Shown here: piece after piece, positions 6,001 through 29,483 of the stretch | Position numbering within the stretch: position 1 is the stretch's first letter | Layout: every line of letters starts with the position of its first letter | The notes under the pieces: model-generated | The model's database searches: none | What the model was told of the DNA's origin: nothing | What the model saw: only the letters and a program-made list of their open reading frames with translations | Translations under genes and position numbers: made by a program | Assembly (NCBI GenBank): GCA_035495615.1 | Contig: DATJFP010000047.1 | Coordinates: forward strand, 4,106-68,105 | Origin: Verrucomicrobiia bacterium | GTDB taxonomy: Bacteria; Omnitrophota; Omnitrophia; Omnitrophales; Aquincolibacteriaceae | Reading direction: 5' to 3' | DNA length: 64,000 nt

Positions 6001-6540
6001 ACGCAGACGATCACCTGGACGTGGGGCGGCAGCATGCCGAACGCGGTCATCGAATACTCCGTGGACGGGGGAGCCTACGTTCCCATCCAGGAAAACGAGG
6101 GCACGCCCAATGACGGCATTGTCACCAACGACGGGTCCTTTGACTGGGTTGTGCCGGACACGATTTCCGCAGACGTGAGAATCCGCATCCGCGATCCGTT
6201 TGACAACGAAGTCCAGTCTGTCACCAATCCCTTCAAGATCCACGGCTTCCTGGACTGGACGTTTGCGCAGCCCGCGCAAAAATGGGTCGTCAATGAGAAC
6301 CATGCGCTGACCTGGACTTCAACGGGGAGCATTCCCAACGTCCTGATTGAAGTTTCCACCAACAACGGCATGAACTGGTCTCCCATCAAGGAAAACGAGG
6401 GAACAGCCAATGACGGCATCGTTCCCAATACCGGCACTTACACCTGGAACATTCCCGACACGCCGTCGCCGACCGTCAAGCTGCGCATCTCCGATCCCAA
6501 CGATCCGACGACGGTCAAAGACGTGACCGGTTTCACGTTC
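1..6540. repeat. Intragenic tandem repeat array: ~265-bp domain repeats organised in a ~2.1-kb (about 705-aa) higher-order unit present about 3 times (approximately 118-2232, 2233-4356, 4357-6540), plus the tail of a further copy at 1-117
   Basis: Protein blocks MRIKISSLPTTDVWAVAAFSQGFFQIIGALQ (nt 118), MKVRMQTLPATDPWSVTAASNGLFQIIGKLQ (nt 2233) and VKVRISSLPEADLFAVRAVSNGLFKIIGGLL (nt 4357) head colinear ~700-aa segments. DNA identity between copies is visibly about 70%, so the duplication is not recent. Confidence 0.8.
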
Positions 6541-8169: not shown

Positions 8170-8197
8170 ACGGGCCTCGCGCCCCGGAGAAGCAACG

Positions 8198-9052
8198 ATG
8201 AAGACCGTCCCGTCCGCCGCCCCGCAAAAGAAGAGTTCCCCGCGCTTTCTCATGGCCGGCCTCGCGCTTCTCGGGCTGGCGTGCGCGTCCATGGCCACAG
8301 CCCCGGACCTGCGTGCGCAGGAAGCCGAACGCGAGCCGGTCACGATCAGCGTGGTCGTCTCCAATCCGTCCAAGGAAAAGACGCAGACCATCCCGGTCAA
8401 GATCGACCTGCCGAAGGAAATCACGCCCTCGGAAATCGTCGAAAACGAAGGCCTTCAGGTTCAATACGACGACCAGCGATCCATTTATTTCCTGTACAAC
8501 TCCAAGGTGGAACTCAAACCCAAACAGACGCGCGTTTTCAACGTCCAGGTCAAAGACGTCTGGTTTATCCCGAAGTCGGCGCTCGCGGAGGTAGGATCCG
8601 AAGCGCAGCGGCTGCTCGCCCGCCTGAAGGGGACGGAGTATTACGATTCCGGCAAACGCCTCTATGATCTCATCGGCGAAAAGGTTGCCGGCATCGAGGC
8701 CAAGCAGAATGACGAGACGCTCGGGCAAAAGCAGCGCATCGGCGCCTACCGCCTCAATCTCCTTGCCATGGAAGAGATCAAACAGCTGCTCGAGAAGATG
8801 GAAAAGATCCTGACGGTGACCGGCGGCGTGCCGACTCCGAACATTCCCGAAAAGCTGAAGTCCGACGCGCCGTCGGCGAAGACGACCTGGATGATTATTT
8901 TCGCGATCCTGATTTTCGTGGGATCGGTCGGATTGGTTTTTTTTGTCACCTGGTACCGGAAAGCCGCGGCCGAAAAAACGGTCCGCGACGAATCTCAGGG
9001 CGCTATGCCCGGCGATTTGCCGGGAGAGGACGTGAGAAACCGGGTGGCCTGA
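8198..9052 (+). CDS. Hypothetical bitopic protein with N-terminal signal peptide and C-terminal TM helix; first gene of the ATPase/T2SS-like gene string
   Basis: ATG 8198 sits 8 nt after GGAGA (8186-8190). N-terminus MKTVPSAAPQKKSSPRFLMAGLALLGLACASMA is signal-peptide-like with a possible lipobox-like LAC. The C-terminal hydrophobic stretch TTWMIIFAILIFVGSVGLVFFVTWY is followed by a charged tail. I recognise no family. Confidence 0.6.
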   Translation: MKTVPSAAPQKKSSPRFLMAGLALLGLACASMATAPDLRAQEAEREPVTISVVVSNPSKEKTQTIPVKIDLPKEITPSEIVENEGLQVQYDDQRSIYFLYNSKVELKPKQTRVFNVQVKDVWFIPKSALAEVGSEAQRLLARLKGTEYYDSGKRLYDLIGEKVAGIEAKQNDETLGQKQRIGAYRLNLLAMEEIKQLLEKMEKILTVTGGVPTPNIPEKLKSDAPSAKTTWMIIFAILIFVGSVGLVFFVTWYRKAAAEKTVRDESQGAMPGDLPGEDVRNRVA

Positions 9053-9097
9053 TAAACCCTTCAACCGCGCGGCCGCGCCGCGCCGGAGGTAGGAGAA

Positions 9098-9337
9098 GTG
9101 CTGAAGGTAGTGTTGTTCAGTTCGAAGCAGATGATTTACGAAGGGCAGGCGCGAAGTGTGACCCTGCCCGGGGAACAGGGATGGTTTGAAGTGCACCCCT
9201 TCCACAAGCCTCTGCTTACCCGGCTCAAGGCCGGCTCCCTTCTCATCGATAAAACCCCTTTCGCCATCCGGCATGGCGCCGTCAAAGTCAAAAACAACGA
9301 AGTCGTCATCATGGCAAGGCCGGTGGGCGCCCTATGA
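9098..9337 (+). CDS. atpC: F-type ATPase epsilon-like subunit, N-terminal beta-sandwich domain only (79 aa; C-terminal helical hairpin absent)
   Basis: GTG 9098 follows GGAGGTAGGAGA. Sequence VTLPGEQGWFEVHPFHKPLLTRLKAGSLLI matches the epsilon signature (..PG..GefGiLp.H.Pllt.L.pG.). Its stop overlaps the next start (ATGA at 9334-9337). Confidence 0.6.
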   Translation: MLKVVLFSSKQMIYEGQARSVTLPGEQGWFEVHPFHKPLLTRLKAGSLLIDKTPFAIRHGAVKVKNNEVVIMARPVGAL

Positions 9338-9552
9338 GCCGGAACATCGCGCTGACCATCATTTTCATCATTTGCATCCTTGGGCCCTCGGGCGTATTCG
9401 CGGCGACCGGTTTTTCGAGCATCCAGGCCCTGGGCAGAAATCCGTCGGCGGCGCCGAAGATCATGAGCGCCATGACGCTTTGCCTGCTGTTTACCGAAAG
9501 CGTGGCGATCGTCGCCTTTCTGATCGCCTGGCAGTTGTTCGCGCCTAATTAA
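9334..9552 (+). CDS. atpE: F-type ATPase c subunit (72 aa, two TM helices)
   Basis: Two hydrophobic helices separated by a polar loop (QALGRNPSAAPKI). Conserved carboxylate in helix 2 (LLFTESVAIVAF). Confidence 0.7.
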   Translation: MSRNIALTIIFIICILGPSGVFAATGFSSIQALGRNPSAAPKIMSAMTLCLLFTESVAIVAFLIAWQLFAPN

Positions 9553-9595
9553 GGAATAACGACCGGGCCCGGGTGACGGGGCCCAAGGAGAAAAA

Positions 9596-10315
9596 ATGCC
9601 TTTCGTCGGAACGTTTTTGTTTCTGCTCATTTTTTGCGGGGGACTGCTTTTCATTATGAACCGTGTCCTGAACACCCAGGCGCACCAGGTCACGCGCCAG
9701 CTCATGACCATTTCTGAAGAGCAGGACAAGAAAATCACGGAGCTGCAGAAACAGGCCAAGGACAACGAGCTCAAAGCCGCCCAGCTCATCAATGAGGCTC
9801 GCCAGGAAGCCGAGCGTGTCAAAAAAGAGGCGCGCGAAAAGGCGGACATGATCCTCGATCAAATGCAGCAGCAGGGCCGGACCGAGGCCGAGCACATCGT
9901 CAGCGAGGCCGTGAAAACGCGCGACGCCATGCGGCAGGAAATGGTCCAGCAGATGGAAAAAAAAGTGGTGGTGCGGGCCTGCCAGGTCGTACTGGAGATC
10001 CTGTCCGCCGAAGCCCGGAAAAGCGCGCATGAGCAGATGCTCTGCCAGCTCATGGAAGGCGGACTGCAGACGCTCGAGAAGATGGACTCGAGAGAGAAGA
10101 TCGCCCGCGTCCGGATCGTCAGTGCCTTTCCCCTAGAGAGCGGGCTGCGCGCCAAGATCGAAGAAACCGTGCAGAAAAAACTGGGGCACCTGCCCGAAAT
10201 CGCTGAGGTCGTCGATGAGAAACTCGTCGCGGGGCTGCGCATCGAATTGGGCCATCTGGTTCTGGAGGGTTCCCTGGCCTCACGCGTGAAGGAGTATCTG
10301 AAAAATGCCGCTTAA
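9596..10315 (+). CDS. atpF: F-type ATPase peripheral-stalk protein, apparent b/delta fusion (N-terminal TM, long coiled coil, delta/OSCP-like C-terminus)
   Basis: AAGGAG RBS at 9583-9588. N-terminal TM FVGTFLFLLIFCGGLLFIM, then a charged heptad region. The C-terminus LVAGLRIELGHLVLEGSLASRVKEYL resembles the delta C-terminus. Position is immediately 5' of alpha. Confidence 0.55.
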   Translation: MPFVGTFLFLLIFCGGLLFIMNRVLNTQAHQVTRQLMTISEEQDKKITELQKQAKDNELKAAQLINEARQEAERVKKEAREKADMILDQMQQQGRTEAEHIVSEAVKTRDAMRQEMVQQMEKKVVVRACQVVLEILSAEARKSAHEQMLCQLMEGGLQTLEKMDSREKIARVRIVSAFPLESGLRAKIEETVQKKLGHLPEIAEVVDEKLVAGLRIELGHLVLEGSLASRVKEYLKNAA

Positions 10316-11785
10316 TCCGGCCCGTTCTGCCCAACCGGGAAACGTTTTTGACGTGAGAGAAGTAGGTCGCGTCACGACCGTCAAGGAATTCATCGTCGAG
10401 GCCGAAGGCCTGCCTTCCTGCCTGAACGGCCAGAAGGTCGAATTCGAGAACGGCGACGTCGGCATGGTCATGGGCTTCAGCGAAAGCAAGGTGAAGATCC
10501 TGGGATTCGGCAATAAATCCGAACTGCACGCGGGCGACCAGGTGTATTCCAGGGGAGAGCCCTTTCACACGCCCGTGGGTGACGCATTTTTGGGGAGAAT
10601 CATAACGAGCCTCGGAAAGCCGTTTGACGAACGCGAGGCGCCTCAGGCCGACAATTCTTTTCCCATCTTCAAGGACGCGCCCGGCGTCATGGACCGCAAG
10701 CCGCTTTCCGACCCGCTCGAGACGGGGCTGCGTATCATCGACGCCGCGTTTCCTCTTGCCAAGGGACAGCGGCAGCTCATCATCGGCGACCAGATGACGG
10801 GAAAGACCTCGATCATCACGGATACGATCCTGAACCAGAAGGGCAAAAACGTGATCTGCATTTACTGCGCGATCGGACAAAGCCGGTCGTCGTTCCTCAA
10901 GGTGCTGCGGCTTCTGCGGGAAAAAGGCGCCATGGATTATACGGTCGTCTATGCGGGCATCGCTTCCGTGCCTTTGGGCGAACAGTACCTCGCCCCGTAT
11001 TCGGCCTGCGCGCTCGCGGAATATTTCGCGTCCAAGGGCCGCGATGTCTTCGTGGCCTTCGACGACCTGGGAAAGCACGCCTGGGCCTACCGCCAGCTTT
11101 CGCTGCTCTTGCAGCGTTCTCCCGGCCGCGAGGCGTATCCGGGCGACATCTTCTACATCCATTCGCAGCTCCTCGAACGGGCGGGGAAATTCGTGAGTGA
11201 CCTGGGCGGCGGCACGATCAGTTTCTTTCCGGTCGTGGCGACGATCCAGGGCGACATCACCGGCTATATCCAGACGAACCTGATTTCGATCACCGACGGC
11301 CAAATTTATCTGAACACGAACCTTTTTCAAAAAGGCTTCCGGCCGGCCATCGACTTCGGACTCTCGGTTTCCCGTATCGGCAACCGCGCGCAGACCGAAG
11401 CGCTCCGGGAGATGAGCGGGAAACTCAGGCTGGAGTACCTTCAGTTCCAGGAATTGCAGCGGATGACCACGATGAAGGCGGATCTTTCCGACTCCGCCGA
11501 ACAAAGGCTGCGGCGCGGCGAACTCATGAACCAGCTTTTCGTGCAGCCGAACACCAAGCCGTCGCCGCTTGCCGAGCAGCTCCTCTTTCTCTATGGGCTG
11601 CGTTCGGGCATTCTCGAGCAAAAGCCGCAGGACTGGCTCCGTTTCCGGGACAACGTGTTTGCGTGGATGCGCCAGCATTATCCGGGCATTCTCGAGGAGA
11701 TCGGGGCCAAGAAAAAATGGGACGACGCGCTGAAGCAGAACGTGGATGAGGCGTTTAAGCGGTTTTTTTCACCCGGAGGCGCGGC

Positions 11786-11789
<4 letters not shown>
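10305..11789 (+). CDS. atpA: F1 ATPase alpha subunit (494 aa)
   Basis: Non-catalytic Walker A GDQMTGKTS. Long colinear similarity to F1 alpha (IDAAFPLAKGQRQLIIGD, YVAFDDLGKHAWAYRQLSLLLQRSPGREAYPGDIFYIHSQLLERA). Start overlaps the b/delta stop. Confidence 0.85.
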
Positions 11790-14540
<2,751 letters not shown>

Positions 14541-14582
14541 GATGAGAAACGCCGCGCATGACAGCTTAAAGGGCCAAAGATC

Positions 14583-16247
14583 ATGAAAAGCAGAATGAAG
14601 ATCGGCCAGCACCTGGTGGAAAAAGGGCTGATCACCGAAGACCAGCTGAAGCAGGCGCTCGACGCCCAGGCGAAGAAAGACCGATTCCTCGGCGAGATTT
14701 TCGTGGAAAACGGATGGGTCACCGAAGAGCAGCTCATGGAATCCCTGGCCGAGCAGTTCAAAATGCAGCTGGTCCGTCTTGCGGAAACGGCTGTCGACCC
14801 GAAGCTCAAGGAAGTCTTTCCCCTGAAGGTGGCGCTGCATTACAAGGTCATGCCGCTCGAGCTCAAAGGCACGCAGTTGACGATCGCGATTGCCGCGCCG
14901 CAGGACATCCTGCTTCTCGACCATGTCAGCCTTGCGCTCCGGCAAAAGTACGTGTTGAACGCCGTCCTTGCTACCGGGCATGAAATCGACAAGGCCATTT
15001 CCCGTTTTTATGGTCTCGGCGCGGAAACCGTGGACAGAATTCTGCTCCGGGAAGGACAGCCCCAGGCCCAGGCCTCGGCCGAGCCCGCGGTTCAGGACAT
15101 TCAGAAAAGCGAAGAAGCGTCCGTCGTGAAGCTGGTGAATCAGTTTCTGCTGGAAGCCTACCAGCGGAGGGCGACGGACATTCATCTCGAGCCGTTCCGG
15201 GACAAGATCCGGCTCCGGTACCGCGTGGACGGTGTGCTCGAAACCGCCGATCTTCCCGACACGATGCGCCGTTTTTTTCCCGCGATCATTTCGCGCATCA
15301 AGGTGCTTTCCGGGCTCAACCTCGTGGAAAAACGCGCGCCCCAGGACGGCCGCGGCAGCGTCACCGTGGGCAGCCAGAAGCTGGACCTCAGAGTGTCTGT
15401 CCTGCCCAGCTCCGCGGGGGAGGGCGTCGTCATCCGCATTCTGCCCAACGCCATGCTCTATAACCTTTCCGAACTCGGCCTCGAGAGGCGTAACCTCGAG
15501 ATCATGCAAAAAATGCTGGCCAAGCCTTACGGGCTGATGTTCGTCACGGGGCCGACCGGGAGCGGCAAAACCACGACTCTGTACTCGGCGCTCAAGCAGA
15601 TCAACACCGAAGAGAGGAAAATCATCACGATCGAGGACCCGGTCGAATACGAGCTTCCGGGCATCATGCAGGTTCCCGTGAATCCCCAGGTCGGCATGGG
15701 GTTTGCGCAGGGGCTCCGAAGCATGCTGCGCCATGACCCGGACGTCATGATGGTCGGCGAAGTCCGCGACGTCGAGACCGCGGAACTGGCCATCCGCATT
15801 GCCTTGACCGGCCACCTGGTGCTCTCCACGCTGCACACCAACGACGCCGCCTCGGGTTTCGCGCGCCTGACGGACATGGGCATTCCGCCTTACCTGCTTG
15901 CGTCTTCGGTGAGCTGCCTCGTGGCGCAGCGCCTGATCCGGAAAATCTGTGACAAATGCAGACAGGAAGTCCCCGGCGTTGTCCCGCGCTCTTTCCACGG
16001 GGAGGGCTGCAATGCCTGCCACCGGACCGGCTATAACGGACGCATGGCGATTTACGAAGTCCTTCCTGTCACGGCCGAGATCAAAAAACTCGTGCTTCAG
16101 AAAGCCTCGGTCGACGAGATCCGCCAGCTTGCCGTCGATCAAGGCATGACGAGTCTTCAGACCGAAGGCTGGGCGAAAGTCAAGGAAGGGCTGACCTCGC
16201 CCGAAGAGGTGCTTCGGATCACAAGCAACGAAACCATGGAGATCTGA
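14583..16247 (+). CDS. gspE: Type II secretion / type IV pilus assembly ATPase (GspE/PilB family) with N-terminal MshEN-type domain
   Basis: N-terminal KIGQHLVEKGLITEDQLKQALDAQ and FLGEIFVENGWVTEEQLMESLAEQ motifs. Walker A GPTGSGKTTTL. Asp/His boxes. C-terminal tetracysteine CDKC...CNAC. Confidence 0.9.
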   Translation: MKSRMKIGQHLVEKGLITEDQLKQALDAQAKKDRFLGEIFVENGWVTEEQLMESLAEQFKMQLVRLAETAVDPKLKEVFPLKVALHYKVMPLELKGTQLTIAIAAPQDILLLDHVSLALRQKYVLNAVLATGHEIDKAISRFYGLGAETVDRILLREGQPQAQASAEPAVQDIQKSEEASVVKLVNQFLLEAYQRRATDIHLEPFRDKIRLRYRVDGVLETADLPDTMRRFFPAIISRIKVLSGLNLVEKRAPQDGRGSVTVGSQKLDLRVSVLPSSAGEGVVIRILPNAMLYNLSELGLERRNLEIMQKMLAKPYGLMFVTGPTGSGKTTTLYSALKQINTEERKIITIEDPVEYELPGIMQVPVNPQVGMGFAQGLRSMLRHDPDVMMVGEVRDVETAELAIRIALTGHLVLSTLHTNDAASGFARLTDMGIPPYLLASSVSCLVAQRLIRKICDKCRQEVPGVVPRSFHGEGCNACHRTGYNGRMAIYEVLPVTAEIKKLVLQKASVDEIRQLAVDQGMTSLQTEGWAKVKEGLTSPEEVLRITSNETMEI

Positions 16248-17458
16248 TGCCTCAGTTTCGATTCCTCGCCAAAGTGAACCCGACGCAGACCGTTGAAGAT
16301 GTCTTGGAAATGGAAAGCAGAGAGGCTGTGCTGCAGTATCTTTCCAAGATGGGATACACGCCGCTGAAGGTCATCCAGATTCAATCTGCGGCGCCCGCCG
16401 CGGGCAAGATCAGCGGCCGCGCGGTTTCTTTCCATCATCTCCAGTCCTTTACGCGTCAATTTGCGAGTCTCATCCGGTCGCAGACGCCGGTCTTGAGAGC
16501 GCTCCGCGTCCTGGAAGAGCAGGCGGAAAGCCCGCGCCTGAAAGCGATCCTCAACGCCGTGCTCGATAACATGGAGCGCAACGGCGCGACGCTGTCCGAA
16601 GCCTTGCGCTGTTTCCCGGAAACCTTTCCGGCCGATTACGTGAACCTCATCAATGCCGGAGAGCTGGGCGGCGCCATAGAAGAGATCCTGGACAAGCTGG
16701 CCGAGAAAATGGACCGCGAAGCCGCGCTGCGTTCGAAGCTGCAGAGCGCTGTCGTTTACCCCGCGTTTGTCGGCGTGATGGGCGCCGTCACGGTGGTCGT
16801 CCTTCTTGTTTTTGTGATGCCGCGCATCCTCGTCATGCTGAAACGGCTGCACGTCGAATTGCCCTGGCCCACGAGGGCGCTCATAGCGCTGACGCATATT
16901 TTGACGCATCCCTTTTTCTGGGCCGGAGCCGCGGCACTTGCCATCCTCGGGATCATCGTCTGGAAGGGCCTGTCCTCGCAGGCCGGCGAGCTCTTCGACA
17001 AACTCTTGCTGCGCGTGCCGGTGGCGGGCCGAGTGGCTCTCTATACGGAAATGGTGAGATTCTGCCGTTCACTGGGACTGCTCATGGACCACGGCGTCCT
17101 GATCATCCAGGCGCTGGAGGCCAGCATCGCGGTGGTGGGGAATCGCTGGATCCGCAGCCAGCTGGAGACGCTGCCGAAAATGGTCAGGGAAGGGCATCTG
17201 CTGACGGAAGGGATGAAAAAACTCCCTCTGGCTTCGCCGTATCTGCTCCAGACCCTGAAGGTCGGGGAAGAGGGCGGGCGGATGCCGGAAGGATTGCTGG
17301 AGGCCGCGAATTTTTTGGAAAGGGAGGCGGTAAGCCGCATGCAGGTGCTGGCGTCGCTTCTGGAACCGGTCATGATTCTCGCGGTGGGAGCGGTCGTCGG
17401 ATTCATCGTCATGGCCACGATGCTTCCGATCTTCGAAATCAGCAGCTCGATCCGGTGA
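16247..17458 (+). CDS. gspF: Inner-membrane platform protein GspF/PilC family (403 aa)
   Basis: TGATG overlap with gspE. Duplicated GspF-type domains, each followed by TM segments. N-terminal FRFLAKVNP...LSKMGYTPLKV motif. Confidence 0.85.
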   Translation: MPQFRFLAKVNPTQTVEDVLEMESREAVLQYLSKMGYTPLKVIQIQSAAPAAGKISGRAVSFHHLQSFTRQFASLIRSQTPVLRALRVLEEQAESPRLKAILNAVLDNMERNGATLSEALRCFPETFPADYVNLINAGELGGAIEEILDKLAEKMDREAALRSKLQSAVVYPAFVGVMGAVTVVVLLVFVMPRILVMLKRLHVELPWPTRALIALTHILTHPFFWAGAAALAILGIIVWKGLSSQAGELFDKLLLRVPVAGRVALYTEMVRFCRSLGLLMDHGVLIIQALEASIAVVGNRWIRSQLETLPKMVREGHLLTEGMKKLPLASPYLLQTLKVGEEGGRMPEGLLEAANFLEREAVSRMQVLASLLEPVMILAVGAVVGFIVMATMLPIFEISSSIR

Positions 17459-17510
17459 TGGAGACAGAAAAGAACCAGGGTAAAGTCGAAGGTAAGCAGA
17501 AAGGAATATT

Positions 17511-17975
17511 ATGGAACCGCGAAAAAAAACGGCCGCATTTTTTGAAAGCCAAAGAGGTTTTACGCTCATCGAACTCATGATCGTGATCATCATCATCGGA
17601 GCTCTCGCGGCCCTTGCCGTGCCCAGGCTGGCGGGACGGACCGAGGCGGCAAGGCAAACGGCGGCCGAGGCGGACATTAAGGGAAATATTGCGCTCGCCC
17701 TCCGGCTGTATGAAGTCGACAACGGCCGGTATCCGAGCACCGAGCAGGGGCTCCATGCGCTGCTGGAAAAGCCCTCCTCTTCTCCGGTGCCGGCGAATTG
17801 GAAAGGCCCTTATCTTGAAGAGCTGCCGATGGACCCCTGGGGCAAACCTTACGATTATAAATATCCCAGCACGCATCCCCCGCGGGATTTTGACCTGGCT
17901 TCGCTAGGGCCGGACGGGGTCGCGAGCGATGATGACATCGCAAACTGGCGTCAGGCCGAGGCGTCGAAAACGTGA
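17511..17975 (+). CDS. gspG: Major pseudopilin/pilin, GspG-like (prepilin-type N-terminal signal)
   Basis: Leader then G|FTLIELMIVIIIIGALAALAVP (class III signal, Glu+5). 154 aa. Conserved GspG-like globular part (YEVDNGRYPSTEQGLHAL, DPWGKPY). Confidence 0.8.
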   Translation: MEPRKKTAAFFESQRGFTLIELMIVIIIIGALAALAVPRLAGRTEAARQTAAEADIKGNIALALRLYEVDNGRYPSTEQGLHALLEKPSSSPVPANWKGPYLEELPMDPWGKPYDYKYPSTHPPRDFDLASLGPDGVASDDDIANWRQAEASKT

Positions 17976-18421
17976 TGCCCCGGGCGGGCCGGAAAAAAGG
18001 ATGGCTGAACTGCCGGGGGATGACGCTCATCGAAGTTCTGGTCAGCCTCGTCATTCTTTCCACGGCCACGGTTTTCGTGCTCGGAGCCCTTGTCAAGGCC
18101 GCCGAAGTCCAGAGGGTGCAGGAGTGCCGGAGCAAAGCCCAGTTCTTCGCACTCTCGAAATTCGCGGCCCTCGAAATGCGCGTCTTGCCCCCCCAAAAAA
18201 TCGATGAAAAGCAAAAAGGCCGCTTCCAGGACGGCAAGGATGCGTTCGAGTGGGACGTCCAGAACTCGGTCGAAGCCGGGGAAACCCAGGACGAAAACGG
18301 CGAAGCGCTTCAAACCCCGCTTATTCTGAAAAGGGAATTGCATGTTTCTTGGAACCAGGGAGAAGAAAAAAACAGCATGTCGTTTCAGACGCTGTCATGG
18401 TACCGCCCGCCCGCGGAATGA
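17972..18421 (+). CDS. Minor pseudopilin (GspI/GspH-like), 149 aa
   Basis: ATGA overlap with the previous gene. Prepilin signal ..CRG|MTLIEVLVSLVILSTATVFVLG with Glu+5. Confidence 0.6.
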   Translation: MMPRAGRKKGWLNCRGMTLIEVLVSLVILSTATVFVLGALVKAAEVQRVQECRSKAQFFALSKFAALEMRVLPPQKIDEKQKGRFQDGKDAFEWDVQNSVEAGETQDENGEALQTPLILKRELHVSWNQGEEKNSMSFQTLSWYRPPAE

Positions 18422-19025
18422 TGTCCGCCGCGGCGACGCGGGCTTCACGCTCTTCGAGCTTCTGATCGCCATGTCGCTGATGACCTTGGCCCTCATGGCC
18501 GTGGGCAGCGTGCTCATGGGCGGCTCGCGCATCTGGCAGCGCCTCGAATGCGGCGGCTCGCAGGAACAGATGCTGCTCATCGGATTTCAGGAAATGAAGC
18601 GCGACTTGCAGTCTTATCATGCTTTTGTGCCGGTGCCGTTTGACGGGCAATATGAGCGTGTCACGTTCCCGGCGCTCGTGCGAGCCGAAACGGAAGAAGA
18701 AAGTGAACTCCGGGAGCCCGGCCGTCTGGCCTATTTTTTCGACAAGCGGAAAGGGCTGTTGTGCAAATCTTCCACGCCGTACCGCACCCTGCGGCAGACC
18801 CGGCCCGAAGATCAATGCGTCGTCCTGGCGGAGAATGTCGACAAGGTCAGTCTGAAGTATTACCACTATGACGCGGAACAGAAGTCGTTCGGCTGGTCGG
18901 GCACCTGGCGCGATCAAGAACCTCCGCTGTCGGTAGCGGTTGAGGTTGTTTACCATGATTCCTGCACGCTCGAAAAAAGAAAAAAAGGCGTCGAGATCGC
19001 GATTCCTACGGGACCAATCGGGTAG
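18342..19025 (+). CDS. Minor pseudopilin (GspJ-like). Start uncertain: no ATG close to the prepilin motif, and the longest ORF start overlaps the previous gene by 80 nt.
   Basis: Class III signal RRGDAG|FTLFELLIAMSLMTLALMAV. Downstream globular domain. Overlaps the following GspK-like gene. Confidence 0.5.
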   Translation: MFLGTREKKKTACRFRRCHGTARPRNDVRRGDAGFTLFELLIAMSLMTLALMAVGSVLMGGSRIWQRLECGGSQEQMLLIGFQEMKRDLQSYHAFVPVPFDGQYERVTFPALVRAETEEESELREPGRLAYFFDKRKGLLCKSSTPYRTLRQTRPEDQCVVLAENVDKVSLKYYHYDAEQKSFGWSGTWRDQEPPLSVAVEVVYHDSCTLEKRKKGVEIAIPTGPIG

Positions 19026-20004
19026 CGTTCTCATTCTCACCGTATGGGTGACGGCGCTCCTCGGCCTTATGGCCATAGGCTTCGGCGCGGTCTCGCTTTT
19101 TTCCATCAACGCCACGGAGACGCTTCGTTACAGCCTCGAATCGTACGGGGCTGCACGCGCCGGGCTTCCGTACGTCCTTTATCAGCTCGAAAACGACAAG
19201 TCCCCTAAATATGACGGAAGCGCCGACGGCTGGAGCGATAATGAATCGCTTTTCCGCGACCATCCTCTCCAAGGCGGTGTTTTCAGCGTCTATCATGAAG
19301 TCTTGAACGAATATTCCGGACAAACCGAGCGCAAATACGGTATTCTGGATGAAGAAAGCAAGTTAAATGTGAACCGGGCAAAGACCGATATACTTAAAAA
19401 TTTGCTCGTGCTGGCCGCCGGGCTCAAAGAAGAGGACGCGGCCGTTCTCGCGAACAGGATTACCGACTGGCGCGATGACGACACCGAACCCACTTTGCCG
19501 GGAGGCGCCGAGAAATACGACTATCTTTCCATGCGCGGCGCATACGAACCTAAGGACGGAGATTTGCAAAGCATCGAAGAGCTCCTGCTTGTCAAAGGCA
19601 TGACCCCTGAAATTTTTTCCTCCATCCGCCCCTATGTCACCGTTTACGGCGACGGCACCGTCAACGTCAACACCGCGGGCAGCAAGGTGCTTCTCTCGCT
19701 CGGCCTCAGTGAAGCCGCCGTGAACGGCGTGCGTCTTTTCCGCCTCGGGGGAGACGGCGAGGCAGGGACTCAGGACGACGGCATCGTCACGTCCAAGTCC
19801 GCGATCTCCGGCGAATTGGGGACCTACATTCCCATGGAAGACATGAACCGCCTCAACGAGTTGCTTCAGGGAGATCTGCTCGGTGTCAGCTCTTCCACCT
19901 TTTCCTTCACGAGCGAAGGCCGTCTCGAGCACGAGGCCGCGCCCGTGATTATCGATTGCGTCCTCGAGCGGACGGGGGAAATCGTGTCATGGTCGCAAAG
20001 ATAA
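18940..20004 (+). CDS. gspK: Minor pseudopilin GspK-like (354 aa)
   Basis: N-terminal hydrophobic segment GSVLILTVWVTALLGLMAIGFGAV lacks the Glu+5, as in GspK. Size and position (after I/J-like genes) are typical. LNVNRAKTDILKNLL and VNVNTAGSKVLLSLGL repeats resemble GspK helix-hairpin-helix-like motifs. Confidence 0.6.
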   Translation: MRLFTMIPARSKKEKKASRSRFLRDQSGSVLILTVWVTALLGLMAIGFGAVSLFSINATETLRYSLESYGAARAGLPYVLYQLENDKSPKYDGSADGWSDNESLFRDHPLQGGVFSVYHEVLNEYSGQTERKYGILDEESKLNVNRAKTDILKNLLVLAAGLKEEDAAVLANRITDWRDDDTEPTLPGGAEKYDYLSMRGAYEPKDGDLQSIEELLLVKGMTPEIFSSIRPYVTVYGDGTVNVNTAGSKVLLSLGLSEAAVNGVRLFRLGGDGEAGTQDDGIVTSKSAISGELGTYIPMEDMNRLNELLQGDLLGVSSSTFSFTSEGRLEHEAAPVIIDCVLERTGEIVSWSQR

Positions 20005-21494
20005 AAGCGCCTGCGGTTCCGGGTTCGCCGCGCTTCGGCGCGTGGTTCCGCCGTCCGTTAAAGACTTCCCGGTCGCCGCTTGTCGTGCTTTCGATGCACG
20101 GAACTTCCGTCAAGGTCTTGGCGGCCGCCGGGACCCCGGAAAAGCCGCGGATTGCGCTCGCCAAAATTCCTATGCCAAGCGACGGTTCGGAAGAAGAAGC
20201 CGTCACGCAGCTGCGGCAATTTCTTTCCGCTCACGGCATCAAAGAGCCCCGCATCATAATTTCCTGCGCGTCGTCGTTCGTGCGCGCGGCGCAGCTCAAG
20301 CTGCCTTCCACCGACATGAAAGAGCTTCGGACCATGGTGGATCTGGAAGTCGAGAAAAGCAGTCCGGAGGCGAAGGACGAGACCTTGAGTTATTTCTCGC
20401 TTCTGGCTTCGCGCCCCGACGGTTATTCCCAGGTCTTCGTGGTCACCTGCCATGCGGACATCGCGAGAAAAGGCGTGAGCCTTGTCGAACGGCTCGGGGG
20501 CCGGCTGACGCATGTCACGTGCGATCTCGACGGCTTTCTCATCTGGCTCCGGGAAATCAAAAAAGGAAAAAAAGACGCCGACGCGTGGATCATTCTCGTG
20601 GACGTGGACAATGACTGCACGACACTCACGGTCCTGCATAAAAAAAAAGTGATCCTCCACCGATGCCTTTCTTTTGGGGCGCAGGATCCCGCTTGCGAGG
20701 ACAAGCTTTCGCAGGAATTCGAGCGGTCGGTGGCCCTCCTGAAAGAAGAAGAAGGCGAGGTTTCCATTTCGGAGGTTCTTCTGTCCGGCATGGTCCCCGA
20801 ATCCTGCGTTTTTCTTGCCGACAAGACGGGAACACCGCTGCCGGTCCGCGTCGTCCCGGCCTTTCCGGGCGCCGAACTTTCGCAGGAATCTTCTCAGGCC
20901 TTGACGAGCGGTTCCTTCACCGCGCTCGCGGGCTTCATGTCCGGCGTTCCGCAGGGCGATTTGACGCCGCCGGCTTTGCGGATCCGGCGCCGGTTCGAGC
21001 AAAGAATCCGGGCGGGGACGATCCTCATGGGCCAGCTTCTTTTTGCGGCGGTCATTCTCGGGGGCGTCTTCCTCAAGGGGCTTCATGAAAAGACGGGCCA
21101 TGAAAAAGCACTGTTTGCCAAGGTCAAAGCCACCGAAAAAGACGCTAAGGATGTGGAAACTTCGCTTATGATCCTCAAGGAAATCAAAAAGCGGATGAAC
21201 GACCGCGGGAATCTGCTGCAATCCATTCTGGACATGAGCAAGGCGACACCGGCGCCCGTTCAGTGGGAAGCGCTGACCTACACCAAGGGCGAGGGCGTCG
21301 AATTGAAGGGCTTCTCGCAGGAAATGCCCGAAGTCTTCAAGATGGTGACCGAGCTCGAAAAGTCCGGCCTTTTTTTGCAGGCCAAGCCCCAGCACGTGGC
21401 AAAACGCAAAACGGAAAACCAAAGCGACGTCACCGCATTCGAAATCAACGCTCCTTTTTTCCAGGCCGCGGAGGACCATGCGTCTCATTCCTGA
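19956..21494 (+). CDS. GspL-like assembly protein: cytoplasmic PilM/actin-like domain fused to a TM and PilN-like periplasmic domain. True start probably an internal Met near 20095.
   Basis: PilM-like N-terminal pattern (VVLSMHGTSVKVLAAAG ... ELRTMVDLEVEKSSP). TM TILMGQLLFAAVILGGVFL near residue 350. C-terminal PilN-like segment. Confidence 0.6.
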   Translation: MRPRADGGNRVMVAKIKAPAVPGSPRFGAWFRRPLKTSRSPLVVLSMHGTSVKVLAAAGTPEKPRIALAKIPMPSDGSEEEAVTQLRQFLSAHGIKEPRIIISCASSFVRAAQLKLPSTDMKELRTMVDLEVEKSSPEAKDETLSYFSLLASRPDGYSQVFVVTCHADIARKGVSLVERLGGRLTHVTCDLDGFLIWLREIKKGKKDADAWIILVDVDNDCTTLTVLHKKKVILHRCLSFGAQDPACEDKLSQEFERSVALLKEEEGEVSISEVLLSGMVPESCVFLADKTGTPLPVRVVPAFPGAELSQESSQALTSGSFTALAGFMSGVPQGDLTPPALRIRRRFEQRIRAGTILMGQLLFAAVILGGVFLKGLHEKTGHEKALFAKVKATEKDAKDVETSLMILKEIKKRMNDRGNLLQSILDMSKATPAPVQWEALTYTKGEGVELKGFSQEMPEVFKMVTELEKSGLFLQAKPQHVAKRKTENQSDVTAFEINAPFFQAAEDHASHS

Positions 21495-22053
21495 TTTCTC
21501 GAATATCCAGCTCTCGCGGCGCGAGAAAATAATGATCCTGGCGGGAGCCCTTGTGGTGAGCCTCGTGGCCGCGGACAGGCTCGTGTGGTCGCCATGGCGT
21601 CAGTACGGCCGGAAACTCGACAAGAGCCTCTCGGAGCTCTCGATGCAGGCCCAAGGCCAGGAGATGCTGCTTTCGAGGCAGGCGAGCGTGCGCGCGGAGG
21701 TCGCGGCCTATAAAGATTTCATCCATCCGAGCCGTTCTCCTGAGCTGGAAATGGCGGAGTTCTTGAGGGAAATCGAAGAGCTCGGCCGCCAGAGCAATGT
21801 CAGTCTTCCGGAAATTAAGCCTCTTCCCACGAATGCGTCTCAATATTTTACCGAGTTCGGTCTGGAAGTGCGTTTCGAGGCGGGGCTTTTGGACTGGATG
21901 AAATTCGTTTATCAGACGGAATCGTCCCATTCCCTTTTCGTCATCGATAAAGCGTCCGCCGCCCGCGCGGATGCGAACTCGGAAATGCTGAAAGGCTCCA
22001 TGCAGATACGGAAAATGGTCCTCAACGACGATTCGATCGAGGCCTTGAAATGA
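21478..22053 (+). CDS. GspM/PilO-like bitopic protein (191 aa)
   Basis: N-terminal TM IMILAGALVVSLVAADRLVW, then a periplasmic coiled-coil plus alpha/beta region. Overlaps both neighbours. Confidence 0.5.
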   Translation: MRLIPDFSNIQLSRREKIMILAGALVVSLVAADRLVWSPWRQYGRKLDKSLSELSMQAQGQEMLLSRQASVRAEVAAYKDFIHPSRSPELEMAEFLREIEELGRQSNVSLPEIKPLPTNASQYFTEFGLEVRFEAGLLDWMKFVYQTESSHSLFVIDKASAARADANSEMLKGSMQIRKMVLNDDSIEALK

Positions 22054-22409
22054 CGGCGCGCGCGCTTGGCGTCCTGGCCGTGGCGGCGGCTTTTCTGTGT
22101 TCGCCGCGGGCCCTCTCCGCGGAGGAAAAAAGCCCTCACGATTACGTGACGGTCAAATCGCAGGAAGGCCTTACCTTCAACGTGCCGGAAGACTGGCCGG
22201 TCGAAAAAAGAGGCAGCACCGTCGGACCTGTGCCGGTCGAGGAATATCTGGCCATGAAGTTTGCGAAGGTGAACGAGAGAATCGACGCGCTTGAAAAGCG
22301 GGTATCCCAACTTGAGTCCGAAGAAGAGAAACGCAAACATGCGGCGCGGCAAAAAATGCTCGGCAGCGAACCTGCCGTAGAAAAATCATCCGAGGAAGAA
22401 AAATCATGA
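22050..22409 (+). CDS. Small secreted protein (119 aa), possibly PilP-like accessory
   Basis: Signal peptide MTARALGVLAVAAAFLCSPRALSA. ATGA overlaps on both sides. Confidence 0.45.
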   Translation: MTARALGVLAVAAAFLCSPRALSAEEKSPHDYVTVKSQEGLTFNVPEDWPVEKRGSTVGPVPVEEYLAMKFAKVNERIDALEKRVSQLESEEEKRKHAARQKMLGSEPAVEKSSEEEKS

Positions 22410-23470
22410 GCCGAAAACTCTTTCCTGAAGCGGCGGGAGCCGTCTGTCTTGCTCTCCTTGTTTTCCTGGGCCCGGCCTGTTCGCGCCGGAAACCTCCCGC
22501 GGATACAGGCGCGGGGAAAAGCGCTGCGGAAAGCCAGCGCAGCGCGGCCGCGCCGGACGCCGACAAGGAAATCGCCGGCGAAATTTTCGGGGTCCCCGTT
22601 CCCGCCGGAAATTACTATTTTGCCAAGCAGGTGCACAGCACTTTCCAGGGGCCCGGGGAGAAGGAAATGACCCCGGAGCAGAAAGAAAAATTTATCTGGC
22701 ACAACCTCATTCTTCATTATGAGGCAACCCGGCGCGGCATCGCGCCCACAGCCGATGAAATGAAGCAGTGGATCGACAGCGTTTTCCAGGCGCTCGACCT
22801 GAAAATAAAACCTTCCGAAAATTCGGCCGCGTATAAAAGCTGGGTTGAAACGACGTTGAAATCGAACGTCGAATTTTTTGAAAACCAAATGCGTTATCTG
22901 GCGACGATCGAGAAGCTGCGGCGGGAAGTCGTTCCGGACATGACCGTGCAAGTCAGCGACGAAGAGATCCGGAAAGAATTCTCGAACGTGGAAAACCACG
23001 TCGGAGGGGAATACCTCCTCTTCGATAAGAAGGAAGAGGCGCAGGCTTTTTACGAAGCGCACCAGTCTGAAAAGGAATGGGAAGCCTATAAGAAAGATCA
23101 TGCGGACGCGATCCGGCCTTTTGCCCTCATCACCGAGCAGGCCATCATCGATTTGTGGGGCGTGCCTCAGGAGCAGATCGACGCTTTCCACGCATTGCCG
23201 CTGGGAACGGTCGGGGAACCGCTGCCTTTCGGGCAAAAGTGGGGTGTTTTCCGTCTTTTGCAAAAACGCGAGGCCGACCCGTCCAAGCTCGACGACAAAC
23301 TGAAGGAAGATTACCGCAAGCGCGTTGAAATGAAAAAGAAGTTTGCGGCGCGCGACGAATGGCTCGAGCACATCGACGAACGCGCGAATCTGAAAGTTTA
23401 TCTGAAACCCCAGGCCGCTGAGGCGGCGCAAAACTCCGCTGCCGCACCTTCCGCGGGAACCGCCTCCTGA
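22406..23470 (+). CDS. Putative lipoprotein, possibly chaperone-like (354 aa)
   Basis: Signal plus lipobox LVFLGPAC|S. Charged helical protein. Last gene of the string before a 58-75-nt gap. Confidence 0.5.
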   Translation: MSRKLFPEAAGAVCLALLVFLGPACSRRKPPADTGAGKSAAESQRSAAAPDADKEIAGEIFGVPVPAGNYYFAKQVHSTFQGPGEKEMTPEQKEKFIWHNLILHYEATRRGIAPTADEMKQWIDSVFQALDLKIKPSENSAAYKSWVETTLKSNVEFFENQMRYLATIEKLRREVVPDMTVQVSDEEIRKEFSNVENHVGGEYLLFDKKEEAQAFYEAHQSEKEWEAYKKDHADAIRPFALITEQAIIDLWGVPQEQIDAFHALPLGTVGEPLPFGQKWGVFRLLQKREADPSKLDDKLKEDYRKRVEMKKKFAARDEWLEHIDERANLKVYLKPQAAEAAQNSAAAPSAGTAS

Positions 23471-23545
23471 TCCCGCACGGCGGCAGAGATCCCGGCGAAG
23501 TAACGTCCTTGTTTCCCGAGGGCGATTTTGCTACAATTCCGCGCT

Positions 23546-24469
23546 ATGCCTTCTAAACCGCTGACATTCCAAGAGTTAATTCAAAAGCTGAACGAATTCT
23601 GGGGCAAAAAAGGCTGCCTTATTGCCCAGCCCTACGACCTGGAAGTGGGCGCCGGCACGTTTTCTCCGCATACCTTTTTGAGGGCGCTCGGCCCCGAGCC
23701 CTGGAATGCCGCTTACGTCGAGCCTTCGCGCCGCCCGACCGACGGCCGTTACGGCGAGAACCCTCACCGCACGCAGCACTACTATCAATATCAGGTCATC
23801 CTGAAACCCGCGCCGCAGAATTCTCAGGAGCTGTATCTCGAAAGCCTGAAGGCCGTGGGCATTGACCCGCTTTCCAACGACATCCGTTTTGTGGAAGACG
23901 ACTGGGAATCACCGACGCTCGGCGCCTGGGGCCTGGGCTGGGAAGTGTGGCTGAACAGCCAGGAAATCACGCAGTTCACGTATTTCCAGCAATGCGGCTC
24001 GATCGACCTCGACGTCATTTCCACCGAAATCACGTACGGCCTCGAACGCATCGCCATGTTCCTGCAGAAAAAACATTCCATGTTCGACATCGAATGGGTG
24101 GAAGGCGTGACCTACGGCGACGTGCATCACCAGGGCGAGCGCGAATTTTCCAAATTCAATTTCGAGGCGTCGAACCCCGAGATGCTGAAGCGCCACTTCG
24201 AAGATTACGAAGCGCAGGCCAAACGCCTCATCGAGGAGAAGCTCGTGCTGCCGGCCTACGACGCCTGCCTCAAGACCTCGCATTATTTTAATATGCTCGA
24301 TGCCCGAGGCGCCGTGAGCGTGAACGAACGCCCGCGCTACATCGGCCGCGTCCGCGCGATCGCACGCGCCTGCGCCCAGGGATTTTTGGAAAGCCGCGAA
24401 GCGCTCGGATTTCCGATGGTGAAAAAAGCCAAGTCCAAGGCCGCCAAAAGCGCCAAGAAAAAGAAATAA
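23546..24469 (+). CDS. glyQ: Glycine--tRNA ligase alpha subunit
   Basis: Colinear with E. coli GlyQ ([52 protein letters not shown]). An alternative TTG start at 23528 is possible. Confidence 0.9.
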
Positions 24470-24470
24470 C

Positions 24471-26579: not shown

Positions 26580-26581
26580 TA

Positions 26582-26590
26582 TGCTATAAT
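26582..26590 (+). promoter_or_regulatory. Extended -10 promoter element TGcTATAAT upstream of ppdK (weak -35)
   Basis: TGCTATAAT at 26582-26590, directly after the glyS stop. About 130-nt leader with AAGGAG/TAAGGA RBS before ATG 26718. Confidence 0.45.
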
Positions 26591-26717
26591 CCCGAATCCC
26601 TGAAGCGAGTGTCCCCGGGCATAAGCCCTCCTGGCCGAGTTTCAGCTCCCTGAACGATCAAATCGAACTTATGCAGGTTCTTTTTTTGTACAAACTAACT
26701 AAGGAGAAACTAAGGAA

Positions 26718-29402: not shown

Positions 29403-29404
29403 GG

Positions 29405-29461
29405 CGGGTTTTTTCTTCCCGTTTTTTCTAACCTCCCGCCCCGGCCCAAAACCGGGGCGGG
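29405..29461 (+). terminator. Possible terminator/attenuator after ppdK: short hairpin plus T6 (29405-29427) followed by a perfect 10-bp GC stem-loop (29435-29461)
   Basis: CGGG-ttttttctt-CCCG followed by TTTTTT. Then CCCGCCCCGG-cccaaaa-CCGGGGCGGG. Confidence 0.4.
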
Positions 29462-29483
29462 GTCTTACCGCAATGTTGGTGTT

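Follow-up and report, generated by a model that had tools for sequence, protein, structure and literature searches.

The closest described counterparts of the locus analyzed here are the gene clusters that Seymour et al. (2023, Nat Microbiol; PMC10066038) reported across the Omnitrophota, in which F-type ATPase genes stand together with type IVa pilus genes. In that work, the two gene sets are at most 10 kb apart on 57 of 66 contigs, occur in every Omnitrophota class, and are found in 56 of 111 Velamenicoccia species; the authors placed the alpha subunit outside the respiratory clade, beside the type 2 and type 3 ATPases of Mycoplasma, and read the loci as a symbiosis or attachment device. We analyzed a string of genes at positions 8198 to 23470 of a 64,000-nucleotide (nt) stretch of contig DATJFP010000047.1 (hereafter the window), which belongs to a metagenome-assembled genome (MAG) of the Omnitrophota (assembly GCA_035495615.1). 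F-type ATPase and type IV filament genes lie less than 10 kb apart on this one contig, the distance over which Seymour et al. scored co-location, and the association is the same, namely, non-respiratory F-type ATPase genes beside type IV filament genes. The locus is thus a further member of an association first described in 2023, and a preliminary description of the window, which knew of no described system of this kind, was mistaken on this point. We find that the locus represents a three-part module conserved in the Omnitrophota, Lentisphaerota, and Kiritimatiellia, the adjacent and codirectional parts of which encode a giant protein with the putative anchor protein unk1, an F-type ATPase that is missing subunit a, and a secretin-less filament machine resembling a type II secretion system (T2SS).

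Other described systems share some of these parts. West-Roberts et al. (2023, bioRxiv 10.1101/2023.11.21.568195) reported a secretion system of more than 10 genes, including gspE, gspF, and a Rotamase_2 peptidyl-prolyl isomerase (PPIase), beside giant genes of Omnitrophota; there, however, the secretion genes precede the giant gene and include gspD and rcpC, whereas in the window the giant gene comes first and no secretin is seen, and an F-type ATPase goes unmentioned in that report (“ATP synthase” occurs zero times). In the type 2 (G1) and type 3 (F1-like X0) ATPases of Mycoplasma, as described in two papers, ATP hydrolysis drives surface proteins and no ATP is synthesized (PMC12994834, PMC11864180). 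The MIB-MIP surface system depends on the type 3 enzyme, the type 2 enzyme has been proposed to drive gliding via giant surface proteins, and in both kinds of cluster there is also a gene for a large protein with a signal peptide and transmembrane (TM) segments at its C terminus (PMC12994834). Like the window locus, these clusters encode homologues of alpha, beta, gamma, and epsilon without a subunit a. Unlike them, the window keeps subunit c and a b/delta stalk, and the Mycoplasma clusters have no type IV filament genes; the 12-TM protein of Mycoplasma has no counterpart in the window, where the resemblance is limited to the topology of unk1, with its signal peptide and C-terminal TM helix.

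The evidence that the three parts form a unit comes from related genomes. Species genomes of the Genome Taxonomy Database (GTDB) were scanned with an alignment of the divergent gamma subunit, a query that carries no pilus-gene information, and 280 loci were confirmed; the best 80 of these 280, on which the locus counts below rest, were annotated with hidden Markov models built from the first five loci (2 of the 80 are the same contigs as earlier loci). In all 69 loci whose downstream sequence is long enough, a GspE or MshEN gene begins no more than 1 kb after the beta stop codon; all 60 loci informative for GspF have that gene, and unk1 lies upstream of the ATPase genes in 52 of 53. Four independent contigs, whose beta subunits are 63 to 77% identical to that of the window, share its gene order in full (giant open reading frame [ORF], unk1, epsilon, c, b/delta, alpha, gamma, beta, MshEN, GspE, GspF, pseudopilins, GspK, PilMN, GspM). 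The proposal in the preliminary description that the two gene sets are a single unit, for which it had suggested a neighborhood search in relatives, is thereby borne out.

Within the window the module and its immediate flank read as follows.

1 to 8169, + strand: 3' part of a gene for a giant repeat-rich surface protein; frame 1 is open from window base 1
8198 to 9052, + strand: unk1, which belongs to no Pfam or NCBIfam family
9098 to 9337, + strand: ATPase subunit epsilon, 79 amino acids (aa), N-terminal beta-sandwich only (PF02823, 50.8 bits)
9334 to 9552, + strand: subunit c, divergent, 72 aa (PF00137, 23.7 bits, just under the 24-bit cutoff)
9596 to 10315, + strand: b/delta fusion, 239 aa (PF00213, 41.6 bits, residues 116 to 234)
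10305 to 11789, + strand: subunit alpha (TIGR00962, 526.1 bits; cutoff, 484.45)
11786 to 12679, + strand: subunit gamma, 297 aa, highly divergent (PF00231, 101 bits)
12688 to 14091, + strand: subunit beta (TIGR01039, 568.3 bits; cutoff, 462.85)
14088 to 14540, + strand: MshEN-only protein, 150 aa (PF05157, 53.9 bits)
14583 to 16247, + strand: assembly ATPase of the GspE/PilB family (PF00437, 428 bits)
16247 to 17458, + strand: GspF/PilC platform protein (PF00482 in two stretches)
17511 to 17975, + strand: GspG, major pseudopilin (PF08334 and PF07963; TIGR01710, 153 bits; cutoff, 88.85)
17972 to 18421, + strand: GspI/XpsI-like minor pseudopilin (N_methyl motif; best NCBIfam match under its cutoff)
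18342 to 19025, + strand: GspJ-like minor pseudopilin (N_methyl motif; best NCBIfam match under its cutoff)
18955 to 20004, + strand: GspK-like minor pseudopilin (PF21687, 68.8 bits; NF037980, 97.7 bits; cutoff, 130)
19989 to 21494, + strand: GspL-like PilM-PilN fusion (PF11104 and PF05137)
21478 to 22053, + strand: GspM/PilO-like protein (weak matches to PF10741 and PF04612; NF040576, 39.8 bits; cutoff, 60)
22050 to 22409, + strand: p7, an exported protein of 119 aa with a signal peptide and coiled coil
22406 to 23470, + strand: lipoprotein with a weak PPIase match (Rotamase_2)
23504 to 23524, + strand: terminator-like hairpin and T run between the last gene of the string and glyQ

The Pfam and NCBIfam calls confirm the gene order given in the preliminary description, which ran from an unrecognized protein through the ATPase set, MshEN, and the Gsp genes to two exported proteins. 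They also support its account of a same-strand string with gaps of at most about 55 nt, in that all genes of the string from 8198 to 23470 lie on the plus strand and the largest gap is 52 nt, but the string holds 18 genes rather than the 19 reported. From the giant ORF and unk1 through MshEN, successive junctions measure +28, +45, -4, +43, -11, -4, +8, and -4 nt, and from MshEN and GspE through the last gene they measure +42, -1, +52, -4, -80, -71, -16, -17, -4, and -4 nt; glyQ follows at +75 nt. The overlaps are as had been described, except that the one at 17972 to 17975 reads GTGA and not ATGA. They amount to 4 nt at epsilon/c, alpha/gamma, beta/MshEN, GspG/GspI-like, GspM/p7, and p7/Rotamase-like, 11 nt at b-delta/alpha, and 1 nt at GspE/GspF. 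At the boundary between the two gene sets, the beta stop codon and the GTG start of MshEN share GTGA at 14088 to 14091, and GspE starts 492 nt past the beta stop codon. In a scan of positions 7900 to 23900, the hairpin at 23504 to 23524 is the only convincing plus-strand terminator-like site, a suggestive observation only.

Tight packing of this kind could in itself reflect no more than operon compaction in a streamlined genome, as the preliminary description had allowed in an extreme form, and both the many 4-nt overlaps in the string and the small size of Omnitrophota genomes noted by Seymour et al. (PMC10066038) would fit that explanation. We reject it and regard it as scarcely credible, because the same order recurs in 69 of 69 loci over three phylum-level lineages, MAGs of Lentisphaerota and Kiritimatiellia included, and does so despite insertions and wide gaps. 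The distance from beta to the next gene is at most 60 nt in 55 of the 69 loci and reaches several hundred nucleotides in others. In two loci a gene for a PAS histidine kinase (~622 aa) lies between gamma and beta (L005, 8130 to 9998; L028, 10998 to 12866), and the rest of the module is unbroken.

The module extends beyond the Omnitrophota. Twenty of the 80 loci are in MAGs of Lentisphaerota, Victivallales, or Kiritimatiellia or in MAGs of the same architecture labeled only Verrucomicrobiota or “bacterium,” and these show a variant order (unk1, alpha1, alpha2, epsilon, c, b/delta, gamma, beta, GspE, GspF, and onward) that lacks the stand-alone MshEN gene. The loci of this type (L014, L038, L058, L077, L080, and others) encode two tandem alpha paralogues, of which alpha1 keeps the catalytic Arg finger in 17 of 17 aligned sequences and alpha2 has Ile at that position in 17 of 18; this pattern suggests a hetero-oligomeric head that may contain dead interfaces. 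The named relatives of the window beta subunit at 63 to 77% identity are almost all MAGs of Omnitrophica/Omnitrophota, the exceptions being the source record and one “bacterium,” and the loci with the closest gamma subunits and almost all named close relatives of unk1 are likewise from Omnitrophota. The source MAG is labeled “Verrucomicrobiae bacterium” at NCBI, and related MAGs carry the labels Planctomycetia, Planctomycetales, and Nitrospiraceae, which are probably taxonomic mislabels. One MAG (STD1_64) holds two near-identical modules (L047 and L072, on JAQURC010000009 and JAQURC010000010, with coverage of 14.6x and 49x), reflecting either two copies per genome or a mixed bin. We also considered whether the module has a cultured host, given that L077 is labeled Victivallis vadensis, but this locus comes from a MAG, its gamma subunit has no relative above 67% identity, and no match is named for the V. 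vadensis type strain; we therefore do not claim a cultured organism.

The giant protein and unk1 stand at the 5' end of the module. The preliminary description had rightly placed the string directly downstream of the giant gene (28 nt separate it from unk1) without recognizing either gene as a member of the module. The giant ORF encodes at least 2,722 aa, its 5' end lying beyond the window start, and contains Ig-like Kre9_KNH and Reelin-subrepeat-B-like repeats (Pfam) followed by a coiled-coil C-terminal region. Unk1 is a type I membrane protein conserved across the loci, with 70 homologues, all annotated as hypothetical. In its AlphaFold 2 model (pLDDT, 85), a signal-peptide helix precedes a beta-sandwich and a three-helix bundle, after which come a C-terminal TM helix and a short cytoplasmic tail; the TM helix carries several near-invariant residues, and a Foldseek comparison of the model with the PDB gave no match at an E value of ≤0.001 and no solved fold like the whole protein, so that topology is the model's only clue to function. 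In about 24 of the related loci the unk1 domain forms the last ~270 aa of the giant ORF itself, which in these fused loci extends past the 10-kb flank; in most of the remaining loci the giant ORF stops just 5' of unk1, as it does in the window. A giant ORF also precedes unk1 in most of the Lentisphaerota and Kiritimatiellia loci with enough upstream sequence. Since unk1 is fused to or stands beside a giant ORF in nearly all related loci, the giant exported protein and its anchor belong to the module.

At the 3' end, the filament machine is best described as T2SS-like, judging by the best matches of its parts. The major pilin fits GspG far better than PilA (153 versus 37.7 bits) and has the prepilin motif G|FTLIE, the PilM-PilN fusion has the architecture of GspL and is conserved in relatives, and the best matches of the I-like, J-like, K, and M genes are all T2SS models, albeit under their cutoffs. 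GspF has its best NCBIfam match in TIGR02120, at 292 bits (cutoff, 424). GspE, which has an N-terminal MshEN domain and a CxxC...CxxC motif, falls between models, reaching neither the PilB cutoff (546.7 bits; cutoff, 675.65) nor that of GspE (526.1 bits; cutoff, 630.25). Seymour et al. treat the filament genes of their loci as those of a type IVa pilus, whereas the parts found here fit T2SS models best; membership in the type IVa pili was considered and set aside, in that the PilB cutoff is missed, there is no PilT or PilQ, PilM and PilN are fused, and the major pilin is of the GspG type. The set resembles a T2SS in having GspE, F, G, I-like, J-like, K, L-like, and M genes in T2SS-like order and in its prepilin cleavage motifs; it differs in the extra MshEN protein, in being hard-wired to an F-type ATPase, and in the absence of a secretin, GspC, and a prepilin peptidase. 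As the preliminary description had stated, none of these three was found among the string genes or the other window ORFs scanned with Pfam, and none belongs to the gene families that recur downstream in the 80 related loci.

Two proteins of the filament set are predicted cyclic di-GMP (c-di-GMP) receptors. The c-di-GMP motif model NF053729 scores 67.7 bits against the stand-alone MshEN protein and 70.6 bits against GspE (cutoff, 38), which suggests that the system may be controlled by c-di-GMP. A stand-alone MshEN gene is a feature of 33 of the 50 Omnitrophota-type loci but is missing from all 19 loci of the Lentisphaerota type. In some relatives GspE has a C-terminal PilZ domain besides MshEN (L003, 11863 to 14082), a second predicted c-di-GMP receptor in one protein. 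Homologues of both p7 and the lipoprotein occupy the same position in L002, L009, and L033, and L007 has p7 only. In 40 Omnitrophota-type loci a Peptidase_MA_2 (zinc metallopeptidase-like) gene lies between GspF and GspG (e.g., L003, 15354 to 16298); the window has no such gene.

The ATPase between these two parts combines a canonical catalytic head with a remodeled rotor and stalk. Alpha has the P-loop GDQMTGKT and the Arg finger, and both alpha and beta exceed the NCBIfam atpA/atpD equivalog cutoffs. Alpha scores 452 to 490 bits against its two best solved matches (9nvl and 2qe7) and beta 472 to 475 bits against its two best solved F1 matches, compared with 332 bits against the Mycoplasma G1 beta subunit (9io5_A). 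Across 78 sequences, the Walker A Lys, the catalytic Glu and Arg (GERxREG), the Walker B Asp, and the D, E, L, S, and final D of DELSxxD of beta are invariant, the sole exception being one D-to-E exchange at the first Asp of DELSxxD. Membership in the type 2 or type 3 ATPases of Mycoplasma was tried and rejected, the MMOB1660/1670 and MSC_0619/0618 models giving 402.9 (cutoff, 600), 414.6 (850), 300.7 (520), and 386.6 (570) bits. Seymour et al. group alpha with these Mycoplasma enzymes, whereas by score the alpha and beta subunits examined here pass the canonical models and fail those of Mycoplasma.

Outside the head, the match to known families weakens at every subunit. Gamma scores 66 bits against TIGR01146 (cutoff, 194.45), and its relatives are rare, numbering 213 among 1.84 billion cluster representatives at an E value of ≤1e-10; a survey of 176 complete genomes found alpha and beta in 125 and gamma over strict thresholds in only 30 (bioRxiv 10.64898/2026.06.07.730766). 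Epsilon scores 54.4 bits against TIGR01216 (cutoff, 67.25), a match that covers profile positions 1 to 78 of 130, and in most of the 67 loci with an epsilon gene the protein consists of the N-terminal domain only, typically 75 to 82 aa. In canonical bacterial F-ATPases the C-terminal helices of epsilon inhibit ATP hydrolysis, and an epsilon reduced to its N-terminal domain is therefore without these inhibitory helices. The b/delta fusion is built of an N-terminal TM helix, a b-like helix, and the C-terminal part of delta/OSCP; its orthologues match PF00430 and PF00213, but all b and delta models stay under cutoff in NCBIfam (b, 32.7 bits with a cutoff of 65.5; delta, 29.4 with a cutoff of 57.5). 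Subunit c reaches 22 bits in NCBIfam, against a cutoff of 85. By these comparisons, gamma, epsilon, c, and b/delta, which make up the rotor, the stalk, and the membrane portion, are highly divergent and have diverged together, and the alpha3beta3 head is canonical and strictly selected.

No subunit a has been found, in agreement with the preliminary description. Neither Pfam nor a hydropathy screen of all window ORFs of 150 to 400 aa gave a subunit a-like multi-TM ORF, none was found in any of the 80 related loci by hydropathy and motif screens with Pfam applied to a few candidates, and PF00119 is absent from the precomputed annotations of the contigs of four relatives. Three candidates were rejected: a TauE/SafE exporter by Pfam (L077, 14126 to 14902); an ORF matching no family (L064, 2462 to 3316); and a window ORF at 36374 to 37372 on the minus strand, which lies inside a 1,992-aa ORF of the plus strand and was taken, with no Pfam scan, to be spurious.

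The state of subunit c points in the same direction. The TM2 carboxylate of c is invariant in ion-translocating F-ATPases, and the window protein keeps its Glu there (FTESV). Among 72 sequences, however, this position is occupied by E in 44, Q in 26, S in 1, and M in 1, although the loop (GRNPS in the window) has an invariant GRNP in all 72 and the rest of the protein varies extremely little. On a rough neighbor-joining tree of beta the non-Glu states lie dispersed, which implies several independent changes; they show no obvious correlation with the fused or unfused state of the giant ORF when the two lists are compared by eye.

These features bear on whether the enzyme is simply an ordinary F1Fo ATP synthase, with subunit a encoded elsewhere and the adjacent pilus genes reflecting an inherited gene order without shared function. 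That explanation accounts well for the head, with its equivalog-level alpha and beta and their high scores against solved F1 structures, for the Glu in the window c, and for the NCBI and JGI annotation as F0F1 ATP synthase. We nonetheless consider it very improbable, since 28 of 72 sequences have another residue in place of the c carboxylate, none of the 80 loci has an a-like ORF, gamma, epsilon, c, and b/delta fall far under family cutoffs, and GspE is linked to the set in 69 of 69 loci, over three phylum-level groups and in spite of insertions. For ion coupling these lineages, moreover, commonly rely on V/A-type ATPases, which are present in 70 to 99% of Gorgyraeia outside the Pluralincolimonadales (bioRxiv 10.64898/2026.06.07.730766), and Kiritimatiella uses an enzyme of the V type (PMC5148204); Seymour et al. 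place alpha outside the respiratory clade (PMC10066038). Compared with the canonical operon (atpIBEFHAGDC), the window set has homologues of c, b, delta, gamma, and epsilon and intact catalytic residues, but it is without a and atpI, its epsilon gene comes first and encodes no C-terminal domain, its b/delta is fused and shortened, and the c carboxylate that is invariant in the canonical enzyme is not so in this family. Some bacteria have a second, non-housekeeping F-type operon, that of the N-ATPase (atpDCQRBEFAG), with subunit a, AtpQ, and AtpR. Membership in this group was also rejected, in that alpha reaches 490.1 bits (cutoff, 750.5) and beta 494.5 bits (cutoff, 752) against the alt_F1F0 models and the gene order differs; Pfam and hydropathy gave no subunit a, and no search was aimed at AtpQ or AtpR.

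A different possibility is that the enzyme still translocates ions with a noncanonical stator, GspF or unk1 standing in for subunit a, and supplies or consumes a local ion gradient for the filament. The Glu kept in 44 of 72 c subunits, including that of the window, would fit such a role, as would the reported formation of an ion channel by PulF, a platform protein of the T2SS (PMC10790770). We judge it distinctly unlikely: in several independent changes, 28 of 72 c subunits, highly conserved in other respects, have exchanged Glu for Gln, Ser, or Met, and no locus contains an a-like membrane protein. The ion-supply module envisaged in the preliminary description is disfavored on the same grounds, the missing subunit a and the evidently dispensable c carboxylate.

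The F1 part might instead be an export or unfolding ATPase for the giant protein or the pseudopilins, comparable to FliI/FliJ/FliH and exerting no torque on the c-ring. F1-like ATPases do serve secretion in type III secretion systems (T3SS), the giant ORF and the anchor domain lie directly upstream, and b/delta weakly matches the T3SS stator protein SctL (20.5 bits). This possibility has some appeal but is unlikely in our view, as a full rotor and stator set (gamma, epsilon, c, and b/delta) has been retained, the c loop that contacts gamma and epsilon is conserved, and the locus already has a dedicated ATPase in GspE.

We favor the reading that the locus encodes an ATP-consuming rotary device that is uncoupled from ion flow and serves the giant-protein/filament apparatus, and we consider this probable, though by a good way short of certain. 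The absence of subunit a, the replaced c carboxylate, and the invariant catalytic residues of beta together favor a hydrolyzing rotary device uncoupled from ions, and the repurposed rotary motor that the preliminary description had offered as one option fits these same observations (no a-like ORF, carboxylate replaced in 28 of 72 c subunits, catalytic beta). In such a device the enzyme would neither make ATP nor move ions; ATP hydrolysis would drive the rotation of gamma, epsilon, and the c-ring relative to a b/delta stator held by some other component of the membrane, and the torque, or at least an ATP-driven conformational cycle, would serve the filament/giant-protein apparatus, possibly by deploying, moving, or tensioning a giant surface protein or an endopilus. 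Candidates for the load or the stator anchor are the unk1 TM helix and the platform of GspF, GspL, and GspM, and c-di-GMP probably gates the system via the MshEN protein and the MshEN domain of GspE. The nearest functional analogy may be the F1-like ATPases of Mycoplasma that power surface proteins.

Several points weigh against this rotary reading or limit it. Rotation, ATP hydrolysis, and contact with the T2SS-like parts or unk1 are what we infer. Glu is retained in 61% of the 72 c sequences and in the window c, and the enzyme may have some ion-related role. The subunit a screen in the related loci was a crude hydropathy filter with Pfam on a few candidates, and the locus counts describe the best 80 of 280. 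The promoter and terminator scan of 7900 to 23900 gave counts not above shuffled controls, and it carries no information on a transcript boundary at 14088. The descriptive part of the proposal, a conserved module distinct from a housekeeping synthase, stands on much firmer ground than its mechanical part.

A more elaborate form of the mechanism, an envelope-spanning rotary machine, is speculative and in our estimation doubtful. Single-pass proteins are known to sit inside the c-rings of V-ATPases. By analogy, a c-ring without subunit a could act as a pure rotor carrying or engaging the TM helix of unk1, with b/delta held by the T2SS-like platform, and cytoplasmic ATP hydrolysis might turn or winch the giant extracellular protein or an endopilus to attack or hold cells.

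Housekeeping genes come straight after the module: judging by their translations, positions 23528 to 30641 encode GlyQ, GlyS, pyruvate phosphate dikinase, and an RpoD-like sigma factor, and no mobile-element genes were noticed around the module. A second very large exported protein is encoded ~8 kb 3' of the module by the 1,992-aa ORF mentioned above (window positions 31793 to 37771, plus strand), which has a signal-peptide-like N terminus, consists almost entirely of coiled coil rich in E, A, K, and Q, has no Pfam match, and accounts for the strong AT skew (0.31 to 0.47) at 32 to 38 kb.

Beyond adding a member to the association described in 2023, several features of the module appear to be new: the absence of subunit a across the loci of 80 species, the recurrent loss of the c carboxylate, the anchor domain unk1, which can be fused to the giant ORF, the occurrence of the module in Lentisphaerota and Kiritimatiellia, and the failed membership in the Mycoplasma-type ATPases. 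The available parts of the main text and supplements of Seymour et al. make no mention of the loss of subunit a (“subunit a” occurs zero times in the supplements), of Glu replacement in c, or of unk1 and its fusion; Lentisphaerota and Kiritimatiellia are unnamed in the available passages (“Lentisphaer” occurs zero times in the supplements), and a literature search gave no other report of the module in these groups.

These loci make a sharp and testable case that, in at least three phylum-level lineages, an F-type ATPase has been converted into a motor that works independently of ions and serves an apparatus of the cell surface. If this proves true, the module would be a diderm counterpart of the F1-like motors of Mycoplasma and would provide a handle on how giant proteins are deployed in predatory or episymbiotic ultrasmall bacteria.

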